A DNA stretch of 45,034 nt from Protoeuglena noctilucae. Lineage: Eukaryota. Under the pieces are notes generated by a model. The model ran no database searches. It was not told the origin of the DNA and worked only from the letters and a program-made list of their open reading frames with translations. The position numbers were made by a program, and so were the translations under genes. The stretch spans positions 1 through 45,034 of the forward strand of contig OY253691.1 in assembly GCA_958009085.1 (NCBI GenBank), in the 5' to 3' direction. This document shows, one piece after another, positions 4,202-37,435 of this stretch (the first letter of the stretch is position 1; every line of letters starts with the position of its first letter).

Positions 4202-4297
4202 GAGCAAATAGCTCAGTGGTTAGAACATTTGGTTTTTCTCTAAACGAAGTTTAAGTAGAGAACCAAAGAGTCAGAAATTCGAATTTTCTTTTGCTCA
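4202..4297 (+). pseudogene. tRNA-Ile-like paralog with a 23-nt hairpin insertion in the anticodon loop
   Basis: Acceptor gagcaaa/tttgctc and D arm nearly identical to trnI at 26168; anticodon stem tttgg/ccaaa encloses 30 nt instead of 7. Confidence 0.65.
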
Positions 4298-15207: not shown

Positions 15208-15279
15208 AGGTTTCTAGCTCAGTGGTAGAGCAGTGGACTTTTAATCCATTGGTCATGGGTTCAAATCCCATGAAACCTA
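15208..15279 (+). tRNA. trnK: tRNA-Lys(UUU)
   Basis: Acceptor aggtttc/gaaacct, loop ct-TTT-aa. Confidence 0.92.
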
Positions 15280-16470: not shown

Positions 16471-16542
16471 GCACCATTCGTCTATCGGCAAGGACGTTGC
16501 CCTTTCACGGCAAAAAGGCGGGTTCAATTCCCGCATGGCGCA
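16471..16542 (+). tRNA. trnE: tRNA-Glu(UUC)
   Basis: Anticodon stem ttgcc/ggcaa, loop ct-TTC-ac; one acceptor mismatch. Confidence 0.9.
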
Positions 16543-17803: not shown

Positions 17804-17890
17804 GGAGACATGGCTGAGTGGCTGAAAGCACCAACTTGCTAAGTTGTCAATACTGAAAAGTATTCATAGGTTCGAATCCTATTGTCTCCG
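17804..17890 (+). tRNA. trnS: tRNA-Ser(GCU)
   Basis: Acceptor ggagaca/tgtctcc, loop tt-GCT-aa, long variable arm. Confidence 0.92.
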
Positions 17891-26167: not shown

Positions 26168-26240
26168 GAGCAAATAGCTCAGTGGTTAGAGCGTTCGGCT
26201 GATAACCGAAAGGTCAGAAGTTCGAATCTTCTTTTGCTCA
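26168..26240 (+). tRNA. trnI: tRNA-Ile(GAU)
   Basis: Acceptor gagcaaa/tttgctc, loop ct-GAT-aa. Confidence 0.92.
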
Positions 26241-26633: not shown

Positions 26634-26941
26634 CAACAAAACAGGTGATTTTCTATTCTTTTAAAAAGGACAGAAAAACTCGAGAAAAGTAATTCGCTTA
26701 CAGACTTACTTACCTCTATTCACTTACTTACCTCTCTTTCAGAGAGGTAAGTAAGTGAATGAAACCTTTGGTTTAGTTACCTTTTTTTCAAAAAAGTAAG
26801 TGATTAAAAAAAGGGCGAAGAACTCGAAGAGGAATGAAATACACTCGAAGAGGGTAACTCGCTTGCATACTAACCTCTCTTTCAGAGAGCAACCTATGCT
26901 GTCCTTCACATAGGTAAGGAATGCATAGGTAGGTAAGAAGA

Positions 26942-27013
26942 GGGCACATAGCTCAGTGGTAGAGCAATGGTCTTCTAATCCACAGGTCAAGGGTTCAAAT
27001 CCCTTTGTGTCCA
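26942..27013 (+). tRNA. trnA: tRNA(UCU) with alanine identity, inferred tRNA-Ala reading AGA/AGG
   Basis: Loop ct-TCT-aa; acceptor GGGCACA/TGTGTCC-A gives G1:C72, G2:C71, G3:U70, A73. Confidence 0.88.
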
Positions 27014-30000
27014 ATAAGACGGAAACCTAGACAAACTCTTGAGGACAGTTTATGTAACTGAAATGTCTTTTTTTTGAAAAAAAAGAATTTCCTCTCATGG
27101 AAACCTTTTTGGTTTTTTCTGAAAAAATGAAAAAAGCGAATGGAACCATCTTACTAGCTAATCCTTGATTCAACCGAGATTTCGTTGTTAGTGGAGAAAG
27201 AACACGAAAGTCTATTTCAAACAAACAAGAATGAATTGAAAATTCAACCACAGAAGGTGAAAGTCCTGTATTGACTTGAAAAATAGAATTTCCAGAATTT
27301 CCAGATAAAGTGGAAAGAAAAAAGTACCACCTTTTAGGAAACGGGAAAAGAGTTTGATCCATAGTGCACTAGTACTGTGAAGGAAAGGTTGAAAGAATTT
27401 GAAACATACGAAATCTTCAAGCCAAGGATTTGTTTCTTTGTTTACCTAGTAACCTCTATTCACTTACCTATGCAAAGCATAGGTAAGTGAATAGAGGTTA
27501 CTAGGTAAACAAAGAAACGGAGTTCCTTTTGCATCATGAGCCAACGAGTTGTACTATGGCCCAAAGGTGTAATTGAAAACAAAAACGCAGGGAAAAAGTA
27601 CAGGCCCGAAACCAGGTGAGCTAACTTTTTCCAGAGATGAAACTTTTAACTAAAAGTGTAAGGCTCGAACCGGTGTCTGTGGCAATAGACTCGGAGGAGA
27701 GAAGGTTAGAGGTGAAATGCCAATCGAACCTGGTGATAGCTGGTTCTCGAAGAAACCTGTTTTGGCAGGCAGCTCTTCTACTTACTTATGCGTTCCTATG
27801 CTTTGCTAACCTATGTTTCACATAGGTTACTAAACAAAGTTTAGGTAAGGACAACATCATTCACCAACGGTGAATATAGGTAAGTAATTGGAAACTTAAC
27901 AAGTAAACTAAGTGTTCCATGCTTTTTTTTTGGTACATTCTCAAAGCTTAGCTTTGCGTTGGTAGAATAAAAAAAAAGATTTAGAGCATTCGGACTTAGG
28001 GCGCAAAGGTTCTAAGTCAAAAGGGAAAAAGCCCAAACATTCAGAAAAGGTCTTTAAGTCAAGAACTTCTTTTAGTTACCTGCCTAAACCTTTGGACAGG
28101 TAAGTAAAAGAAGAGTTTGATAGGAAAAAAAAATCATTTTTCATAAACTTTTCTTTTAACAAAACTAATGCTCTTTTTGTAGGCTTAGAAGCAGCCATCT
28201 TTTTTTACTTATATTTATAATAGTGTAAGTATACACATTTTGAGAAAGCGTAAAAGCTCGAGTGCATAAGAAAAATGATTTTGATCTATAAACGAGGCTA
28301 AATCTTGCACCTATTCTAATGCTTATCTATTTAGACTTGTTATCTATATGTAGATTCACTTACCTACGTATGCATTCCTTACTAACTTATGCTTCGCATA
28401 AGTAAGTGAAGACAGCATAGGTTGCTGCCTAAACCGAAGGTTTAGGCAGGCAAGTAAGTGAAGGATAGGTAACAGTACGGATAAGGGTATTCGAGCGTAG
28501 AGTAATAAGTTAATTCTGTGAAGAAATAAAAACTCTAGTGACTATGTTGGCACGAGTAGCGGAAACTGTAATATCAGCTTTATTTACTTAATTATTTCTA
28601 ACCTATGCTTTGTTTACCTAAACAAAGTTTAGGTAAGTAAGTAAATAATTGAGTAAAGGAATTAAGGTGATTCATGAACTTACAGGGCCGAATCCTCAAA
28701 GGTTTCTTTGCTCGGGTGTACCGCAGAGAGTTTATGGTCCCTAAGAAAAATTCTGAAAAGATAATTTGAGGGGTGTTCTTTCTTTTGCTTTTATTCTCGG
28801 TAACTCGTTTTGTTACCTCTCTTTGAGAGAGGTACCTTAAATTTCTTACTAACTTACTAACTTACCTATGCAAAGCATAGGTAAGTTAGTAAAAAAAAGA
28901 CTACAATTTTTAGGAATAAGTAGAATAAAAAAAGAGAAAGCAGGAAAAATAGTTTGCACCATACTAAAACCGACACAGGTGAGGAAGTAGAAATCTACTA
29001 AGGCTTGGGAAGACTCGAACATAAGGAACTCGGCAAAATACCACGGTATCTTCGGTAGAACGTGGGCCCATAAAAGGTTGAAAAAAATCGGAGAGGGCGA
29101 CTGTTTAACAAAAACATAGGTCTCTGCCACTGCGTAAGCATACGTATAGAGATTGATTCCTGCCCGGTGCTAATTCTGTACAAGAACAGGTTTTTGATAC
29201 TTTTACTTGCTAATTTATGCTTTGCTAACCTCTCTTTCAGAGAGGTTAGCAAAGCATAAGTAAGTTAGTAAAAGGCTTGAAATTCGAAGATTAGTAAACG
29301 GCGGCTGTATACCTGACGGTCCTAAGGTAGCGAAATTCCTAGACGCTTAATTGGCGTCCCGCATGAAAGGATTCACGATCCTCTCACTGTCTCATGTTCG
29401 AAGCCCGCGAAACTCCTTTCCCCGTGCAGAAGCGGGGATGTATCAGTTAGACGAGAAGACCCTAGTAGCTTTACAGGACCGGACCTTTATTTTCATTTTT
29501 CAATTGTGTAGATCATGTGGGATTGTTTTTATTTTGCTTTCTTTATTACTTACTTACCTTTCTTCCTATGCTTCGCATAGGACAAGAAAGGTAAGTAAGT
29601 TAACAAACAACATCTTGAAAAACCACTCAATGGAAGAATACAAATTAAGTGAAAAAAAAACAACAAAGGTCTTGAGACTGTTTGGTTGGGGCGACAACCT
29701 CCTAAAGAGTAACGGAGGTGTATGAAGACTTTTCTTAAATAGGGCACAGCCTATTTGCATTCGGGATTTCGAAAAAAAAGTTTGATTGGACAGAAAAACC
29801 TTTCTGCCAAGGGTGAAAGCCTATAAAACTGACCCAGAGCAAAGGAGTGGAACTTGCTCTGATCCACGGATCAAAGTTACACTAGGGATAACAGGCTAAT
29901 CAAGCTCTAGAGAAGCTATCGACGGCTTGGTTTGGCACCTCGATGTCGGCTCTTCGCTTCCTGGGGCTGTACAAGGTCCCAAGGGTTGGACTGTCCGTCC

Positions 30001-30084
30001 AGTAATGCGGAACGTGAGCTGGGTTCAATACGACGTGAGTCAGTATGGATTCTATCTGCTGATACGGTAATTTTTCATGGAAAA
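27014..30084 (+). rRNA. rnl: LSU rRNA, main fragment up to the end of domain V (ends approximate)
   Basis: agtactgtgaaggaaag, cccgaaaccaggtgagcta, cctaaggtagcgaaattcct, gggataacaggct, cacctcgatgtcggctc; no sarcin-ricin loop here. Confidence 0.9.
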
Positions 30085-30447
30085 ATTTCTTTAGGCAATA
30101 AAAAGCCATAAGATAACTAACTAATTATTATTACCATTTTTTTTTTTACAGATTTTTCTTGTTTTTGTTACCTTTCTTGTCCTATGCTCTATTCACCTGC
30201 CTTACCTCTAATCACTTACCTATGCGAAGCATAGGTAAGTGAATGATGTTTCACATAGGTAGGCTGCTATGCTTCGCATAGGTTAGTGAATAGAGCATAG
30301 GACAAGAAAGGTAAGTAAGGAAATACTGATCTCTAAATAAATCCTGTTCCTTTTTTCAAAGAAAAAATGAAAAAGATTAATCTTGAAACACTACTTAGGT
30401 ATCAAGTCTCAGTTACAAATAACAAATATCAAGATTTCTGAAAAATT

Positions 30448-35357: not shown

Positions 35358-35430
35358 CAGAACGTAGCGCAGTTGGAAGCGCGTTAGCTTTGGGAGCTAA
35401 AGGTCGTAGGTTCAAACCCTACCGTTTTGA
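35358..35430 (+). tRNA. trnP: tRNA-Pro(UGG)
   Basis: Acceptor cagaacg/cgttttg, loop tt-TGG-ga. Confidence 0.92.
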
Positions 35431-37363: not shown

Positions 37364-37435
37364 GGGGATTTAGTTTAGTGGTAGAATGCTAATTTTGCAA
37401 GTTAGATGTCATTGGTTCAATTCCAATAATCTCCA
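37364..37435 (+). tRNA. trnA: tRNA-Ala(UGC)
   Basis: Acceptor ggggatt/aatctcc with G3:U70, loop tt-TGC-aa. Confidence 0.92.

Follow-up and report, generated by a model that had tools for sequence, protein, structure and literature searches.

Sense-to-sense codon reassignments are rare, and those captured by alanine include CUG in the nuclear genes of Pachysolen and CUN in the mitochondria of Eremothecium. In green algae, the mitochondria of Sphaeropleales read AGG, or AGR as a whole, as alanine by means of a tRNA-Ala(CCU) or tRNA-Ala(UCU) (Noutahi et al. 2019, PMC6551751). As the source of this tRNA, Zihala and Elias (2019, PMC6821328) proposed a duplicate of trnW(cca) in Bracteacoccus and duplicates of trnA(ugc) elsewhere. 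The reading of AGR as alanine was first predicted in the pedinophyte Marsupiomonas by Turmel et al. (2020, PMC7748506), and Barcyte, Zihala and Elias (2025, PMC12574857) extended it to all Marsupiomonadales, including Protoeuglena noctilucae and its tRNA, with G3:U70 and A73 highlighted as the basis of alanine charging. The same paper does not find the tRNA itself to be close to any tRNA class, and its Neighbor-Net is inconclusive.

The window analyzed here, i.e., the whole stretch of 45,034 bases (38.96% GC), is a green-algal mitogenome from a pedinophyte of the order Marsupiomonadales, and among named cytochrome b sequences, the closest belongs to Marsupiomonas sp. NIES 1824 (84% identity). 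The 20 tRNAs called by ARAGORN are all on the + strand, as are the two rRNAs and the protein genes, and three matches to group II introns were obtained. Table 2 of PMC12574857 gives the same profile for the mitogenome of P. noctilucae, with 45,034 bp, 38.96% GC, 20 tRNA genes and group II introns, two in cox1 and one in cox3. In addition, the row for this species in the S18 figure of that paper equals positions 26942..27013 letter for letter. Since the same gene and the same reading are printed there, the finding is not new: the tRNA(UCU) and its role are real, correctly interpreted and already known, having been published in 2025. Our own comparisons agree that the gene very probably specifies a tRNA through which AGA and AGG are decoded as alanine in the mitochondria of a marsupiomonadalean pedinophyte, and thus provides the molecular basis of one sense-to-sense reassignment. 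Two points may be useful additions, namely, a hint of a Lys-type tRNA body and a trnP(ugg) gene that also carries G3:U70 and A73. The gene, its main elements and the ordinary alanine tRNA of the window are as follows.

26942..27013, + strand: tRNA(UCU) with alanine identity marks, predicted to read AGA/AGG (ARAGORN, Rfam, published S18 row)
26974..26976, + strand: anticodon TCT, i.e., U34 C35 U36 (ARAGORN, gene position 33; Rfam alignment)
26944, + strand: G3, the 5' half of the G3:U70 wobble pair (sequence, pair table)
27010, + strand: U70, the 3' half of the G3:U70 wobble pair (pair table)
27013, + strand: discriminator A73; the next bases are ATA, and CCA is not encoded
37364..37435, + strand: ordinary tRNA-Ala(UGC), with G1:C72, G2:C71, G3:U70 and A73, which decodes GCN (ARAGORN, Rfam, pair table)

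ARAGORN calls a 72-nt tRNA with the anticodon tct on the + strand at 26942..27013, and the gene matches the full length (positions 1-71) of Rfam model RF00005 with 72.2 bits (gathering score, 29), the fourth best score among the 22 Rfam tRNA rows of the window. The acceptor stem consists of G1:C72, G2:C71, G3:U70, C4:G69, A5:U68, C6:G67 and A7:U66, followed by A73. An earlier reading made from the sequence only had named the TCT anticodon together with G1:C72, G2:C71, G3:U70 and A73, which both the ARAGORN call and the letters bear out, and had noted that the top three pairs are those of the tRNA-Ala(UGC) at 37364, with which the pair table agrees, A73 included. The Rfam covariance alignment shows two nonstandard pairs, A27.C43 and U31.U39, both in the anticodon stem, and the tRNA is of the short-variable-arm type, without a long variable arm. 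Minimum free-energy folding yields a structure other than the cloverleaf (z -2.37); given that tRNAs often misfold in silico, the covariance model is the relevant structure test. A mismatch in the acceptor stem itself, A3.C70, was seen in another tRNA of the window, tRNA-Glu(UUC) at 16471..16542 (+).

As an outgroup, we used mitochondrial loci found by a cob protein search of metagenome contigs, of which 80 were kept (51-66% identity), none of them from a Marsupiomonadales genome. Among the 237 distinct nonalanine tRNAs from these 80 unrelated contigs, G3:U70 occurs once, and its presence in tRNA(UCU) is far from chance. The D loop of tRNA(UCU) reads AGUGGUA, which places a U at position 20. 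The lack of A20, also pointed out in the sequence-only reading, is therefore correct and sets the gene apart from true tRNA-Arg(UCU), for which the outgroup has A20 in 13/13 and G3:U70 in 0/13 genes, but it is no peculiarity within this genome, since a simple parse finds A20 absent from 18 of the 20 tRNAs, the exceptions being those for Cys and Pro.

The meaning of AGA and AGG was assessed from the proteins. In an alignment of cob with 111 distant homologs that share about 61-66% identity with it and lie outside the close clade, AGA/AGG falls on a conserved Arg column in 0/11 cases, the residues of the 11 conserved columns being A (3), L (3), S, V, D, K and W, whereas CGA/CGT falls on conserved Arg columns in 8/8. 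For AGR, a column likelihood computed from cob alone gives -63.5 for Arg, -26.3 for Ala and -25.2 for Leu. Arg is thus rejected, whereas Ala and Leu are too close to be told apart; as controls, the families GCN, CGN, CCN, GGN and CTN each give their standard residue. When AGR was read as Ala, the Pfam bit score was higher in all 19 family rows, which cover 13 gene segments. In cox1, for example, AGR lies where the Ala reading brings the protein into line with the conserved motif. For ten segments (13 Pfam rows), AGR was also read as X, Ser and Leu, so that the sums below compare Ala, Ser, Leu, Arg and X.

AGR read as Ala: summed Pfam score of 2562.9 bits, 13 rows
AGR read as Ser: summed Pfam score of 2514.5 bits, 13 rows
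AGR read as Leu: summed Pfam score of 2434.9 bits, 13 rows
AGR read as Arg: summed Pfam score of 2431.9 bits, 13 rows
AGR read as X: summed Pfam score of 2431.0 bits, 13 rows

Among the readings scored by Pfam, AGR fits alanine best, with Ala ahead of all four other readings in 11 of 13 rows; in the other two, both from cox2, Ser is marginally ahead of Ala (178.0 versus 177.4 and 61.6 versus 61.1). With AGA used 291 times and AGG 36 times, the 4,387 counted codons contain 327 AGR versus 263 GCN, meaning that tRNA(UCU) would serve more alanine codons than the ordinary alanine tRNA does. It is also the only AGR-cognate tRNA in the window, where the 20 ARAGORN calls comprise one tct and no cct anticodon. 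The earlier claim that this gene is the likely decoder of the reassignment and has alanine identity is thus supported, on the grounds of this sole cognate tRNA, the cob columns and the Pfam preference for Ala.

Codon usage in the window shows a second peculiarity. TTA and TTG are absent from the bodies of 12 genes and confined to the last ~5% of five table-11 open reading frames, at codon 339 of nad1, 391 of cob, 430 of nad2, 228 of nad6 and 249 of cox2. The ARAGORN list for the window holds no trnL(uaa), no trnR for CGN and no trnT. PMC12574857 proposes UUR as stop codons in Marsupiomonadales, and the TTR pattern at the ends of reading frames, together with the lack of trnL(uaa), agrees with this proposal. 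The companion traits of the order are therefore present here, with UUR only at gene ends and without trnL(uaa), trnR (CGN) and trnT.

AlaRS recognizes G3:U70 together with A73 and the first two pairs of the acceptor stem and ignores the anticodon, while ArgRS of the bacterial and organellar type relies on A20 plus C35 and also uses U36. The UCU anticodon would then be no hindrance to alanylation, and a tRNA that combines it with such an acceptor stem should insert Ala at AGR. ArgRS would be kept off by the missing A20, even though C35 and U36 remain, and LysRS would be kept off by C35. The AGN box is shared with a second tRNA:

17804..17890, + strand: tRNA-Ser(GCU), decoder of AGY (ARAGORN)

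Since AGY is served by this tRNA, U34 of tRNA(UCU) must be limited to purine-ending codons, and it is presumably modified such that AGR is read and AGY (Ser) is not. The tRNA would be excised from a precursor transcript extending into the large rRNA, and CCA would be added posttranscriptionally.

That AGR might instead stand for another residue (Ser, Gly or Leu) or be ambiguous, through tRNA(UCU) or an imported tRNA, is very improbable. The 1.1-bit lead of Leu over Ala in cob alone and the slightly better fit of Ser in the two cox2 rows point in this direction, and import would be required anyway for Thr and CGN, given that the window has no tRNA genes for them. However, the lead of Ala in the sum of the 13 Pfam rows is 48.4 bits over Ser and 128.0 bits over Leu, and tRNA(UCU) does not have the long variable arm used for Ser and Leu identity. 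Some animal mitochondria do use AGR for Ser or Gly, the Gly case being cited in PMC12574857, but C2:G71 and G3:C70, which that paper gives as Gly identity elements, are absent from tRNA(UCU), and no Gly column is found among the 11 conserved cob AGR columns. An ordinary trnR(ucu) that is still arginine charged, with the odd AGR pattern due to fast protein evolution, is scarcely credible: it has on its side the ARAGORN label tRNA-Arg, which derives from the anticodon, and the ArgRS elements C35 and U36, and against it the contrast of AGR with CGA/CGT on the conserved Arg columns of cob, an Arg Pfam sum that is the second lowest, within 1 bit of X and 131 bits under Ala, and the lack of the A20 that all 13 true genes have.

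The strength of the G3:U70 argument is limited by another tRNA of the same genome.

35358..35430, + strand: tRNA-Pro(UGG), with G3:U70 and A73 but C1:G72 and A2:U71 (pair table)

The CCN columns of cob fit Pro by +57.0 bits (column likelihood). CCN is thus still proline despite G3:U70 and A73 in trnP(ugg), showing that these two elements are insufficient for alanine decoding here. The G1:C72/G2:C71 context common to tRNA(UCU) and tRNA-Ala(UGC) probably matters. The single nonalanine tRNA with G3:U70 among the 237 of the outgroup is likewise a tRNA-Pro(UGG) with C1:G72 (locus L012), and the comparison suggests that the organellar AlaRS needs the G1:C72, G2:C71 context or is blocked by C1:G72. 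Neither trnP nor tRNAPro nor proline turned up when the PMC12574857 main text was searched.

Directly downstream of tRNA(UCU) lies the large-subunit rRNA, whose Rfam match begins 6 bases within the 3' end of the tRNA. In three RNA-library runs from two studies, contigs extend across the tRNA into the start of the rRNA, with 0 differing letters.

27008..30099, + strand: large-subunit rRNA region (Rfam LSU_rRNA_bacteria, 951.5 bits)
26835-27461: contig of run X10
26731-27337: contig of run X12
26731-27150: contig of run X14

A fourth RNA-library run, X17, gave no cover over tRNA(UCU). The contigs are compatible with cotranscription of tRNA and rRNA. Data of this kind cannot reveal a mature tRNA with its ends, CCA and modifications, and the libraries may contain DNA. 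The contigs of the three runs show no sign of editing at U70. We also observed that one X14 contig (depth, 139.6) passes from 27150 straight to 27498, leaving out 347 bases within the 5' part of the large-subunit rRNA region (27151..27497), whereas the X10 and X12 contigs run through at least part of this segment. Possible explanations for the skipped bases are a spacer that is removed between rRNA pieces, an intron-like insert and strain variation.

To gain an idea of where the body of tRNA(UCU) comes from, we compared it with the other tRNAs of the window and of the outgroup.

15208..15279, + strand: tRNA-Lys(UUU), the window tRNA most similar to tRNA(UCU) (pairwise identity)

The two agree at 54/72 positions, the highest value of all 120 pairs among the 16 short-variable-arm tRNAs of the window, versus 45/72 for the trnA(ugc) of the window. 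This confirms the earlier statement that the body is nearer to trnK than to trnA(ugc). Among the 206 pooled tRNAs of the window and the 80 loci, the nearest is the Lys(UUU) tRNA of a distant mitochondrion (60/72), and the mean identity to tRNA(UCU) by class is 0.69 for Lys, 0.63 for Ala and 0.60 for Arg(UCU), with 0.62 for the best Arg. The traits of the Arg(UCU) class, namely, the A20 D loop, the anticodon-stem type and the T-stem type, are absent from the alignment row of tRNA(UCU). We also scored it with a class-profile classifier in which the anticodon was masked and which placed 187 of 196 known tRNAs correctly in leave-one-out; its Lys profile was built from 8 genes and its Arg(UCU) profile from 13 outgroup genes.

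Lys profile: tRNA(UCU) scores +9.7 bits, and +8.6 with the acceptor also masked (true members, 10.7 to 25.4)
Ala profile: tRNA(UCU) scores -1.7 bits, and -14.1 with the acceptor also masked
Arg(UCU) profile: tRNA(UCU) scores -21.9 bits, and -6.7 with the acceptor also masked (10 of 13 true members, 29 to 53)

The Lys score of +9.7 lies just under the range of true Lys tRNAs and is reached by none of 188 non-Lys tRNAs (maximum, -1.7); when the acceptor is also masked, 1/188 reaches the score of tRNA(UCU). A maximum-likelihood tree of 78 tRNAs and 70 columns places tRNA(UCU) beside the Lys cluster with no support, AU tests reject no grouping (Lys, p 0.378; Arg, p 0.492; Ala, p 0.402), and the Arg-constrained tree has a log-likelihood 0.15 above that of the free tree. 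Furthermore, the Lys-like stems are shared with the general tRNA consensus of Rfam, and their combination occurs in 4/8 Lys, 5/33 Met, 3/11 Asp, 2/5 Trp, 0/13 Arg(UCU) and 0/13 Ala tRNAs. As tRNA(UCU) has C35 and not the U35 of tRNA-Lys(UUU), it is no present-day Lys tRNA, and only its descent is at issue.

From the sequence comparisons, we tentatively place first an origin of tRNA(UCU) as a duplicate of trnK(uuu) rather than as a remoulded trnR(ucu), a reading to which we would give slightly less than an even chance. Two point changes would suffice for this route: U35 to C would move decoding to AGR and end recognition by LysRS, and C70 to U would create G3:U70 for AlaRS. Several outgroup Lys tRNAs (e.g., those of loci L006, L020 and L043) have G1, G2 and G3, and some of them also have A73. 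If true, a Lys origin would mean that an alloacceptor tRNA was recruited after the loss of trnR(ucu), contrary to the published view. The trnW(cca) duplicate proposed for Bracteacoccus is a precedent for such recruitment across acceptor classes.

According to that published view, the ancestral mitochondrial trnR(ucu) was remoulded in place into an AlaRS substrate, which we consider a real possibility, although one that falls short of being probable. It leaves the anticodon unchanged, a "transmogrified" trnR(ucu) is the most parsimonious source according to PMC12574857, and the same paper describes such a path (C70 to U) for the plastid trnR(ucu) of peDinoflagellates; moreover, the Arg(UCU) grouping has the highest of the AU p values given above and is not rejected. 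It has to contend with the clearly negative Arg(UCU) profile scores, both with and without the acceptor, with a best identity of 62% among the 13 outgroup tRNA-Arg(UCU), and with stems that are found in none of these 13 and a D loop without A20. Inspection by eye of the S18 figure in PMC12574857 points the same way: all six Marsupiomonadales tRNA(UCU) rows have GGG...UCCA ends and no A20, whereas most of the 25 other green-algal rows, below that of Tetradesmus, have the canonical Arg form, so that the six reassigned rows differ from most of the nonreassigned ones. In the same figure, also by eye, U31.U39 is common to Marsupiomonas and Protoeuglena and not found in the four other Marsupiomonadales. 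Since the rows of Oistococcus and Marsupiomonadaceae sp. have a regular A31:U39, it is a later change on the Protoeuglena/Marsupiomonas branch.

An origin from a duplicated trnA(ugc), with the anticodon altered to UCU in the way suggested for some tRNA-Ala(CCU) of Sphaeropleales (PMC6821328), is improbable. The top three acceptor pairs and A73 match trnA(ugc), one outgroup Ala(UGC) tRNA is 74% identical to tRNA(UCU), and the AU test leaves the Ala grouping standing, but the window trnA is less similar than trnK, the Ala profile is negative and drops further once the acceptor is masked, the anticodon-stem type occurs in 0/13 Ala tRNAs, and PMC12574857 reports no Ala affinity. The sequence-only reading had favored a former Arg(UCU) or Lys-type tRNA over a trnA duplicate; similarity and profiles speak for this, but it is unproven, as the AU test does not reject Ala.

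Further tRNA-like elements were seen in the window and in viral contigs. A 21st element at 4202..4297 (+) matches the Rfam tRNA model with 50.6 bits and has no ARAGORN call. Its acceptor, D and T arms resemble those of trnI(gau) at 26168..26240, with a long hairpin (26 extra bases in the Rfam alignment) in place of the anticodon arm. Probable explanations are a degenerate copy of trnI or a processing signal. A pattern search of viral contigs for UCU tRNAs ending in TCCA matched 39 loci, 0 of them related to tRNA(UCU). Two phage-like contigs, L081 (9971..10041, +) and L089 (9999..10072, -), each carry one UCU tRNA with G1:C72, G2:C71, G3:U70 and A73 that is unrelated in sequence to that of the window; phages may use these tRNAs to insert Ala at AGA, or the resemblance may be due to chance.

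Set against the described systems, tRNA(UCU) shares with canonical mitochondrial tRNA-Arg(UCU) the anticodon loop CUUCUAA, C35 and U36, as well as the A73 of most members, and differs from it in the D loop, where the canonical tRNA has A20, in the type of the anticodon and T stems, and in G3:U70, which the canonical tRNA lacks. With Pachysolen and Eremothecium it has in common that AlaRS ignores the anticodon, so that a G3:U70 tRNA with any anticodon inserts Ala, although codons, compartments and lineages are different. The likeness to Sphaeropleales lies in Arg codons captured by a tRNA that AlaRS should accept; that event is nevertheless independent, took place in another class of green algae, mostly involves a CCU anticodon (AGG only), and has trnA or trnW as the proposed origin, not trnK or trnR. 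The plastid tRNA(UCU) of peDinoflagellates, likely a further case of AGR-to-Ala reassignment, also combines UCU with G3:U70 where AGR is no longer Arg, but it is a plastid gene with a clear descent from plastid trnR(ucu) by C70 to U, has U73 instead of A73, and shows a mixed amino acid signal, Ala or Gly (PMC12574857). Finally, the Marsupiomonadales tRNA(UCU) described in PMC12574857 is the same object, with no difference in the gene itself. The difference lies in how its origin is read: our profiles give a Lys-type signal, whereas the paper reports no affinity and favors a remoulded trnR(ucu).
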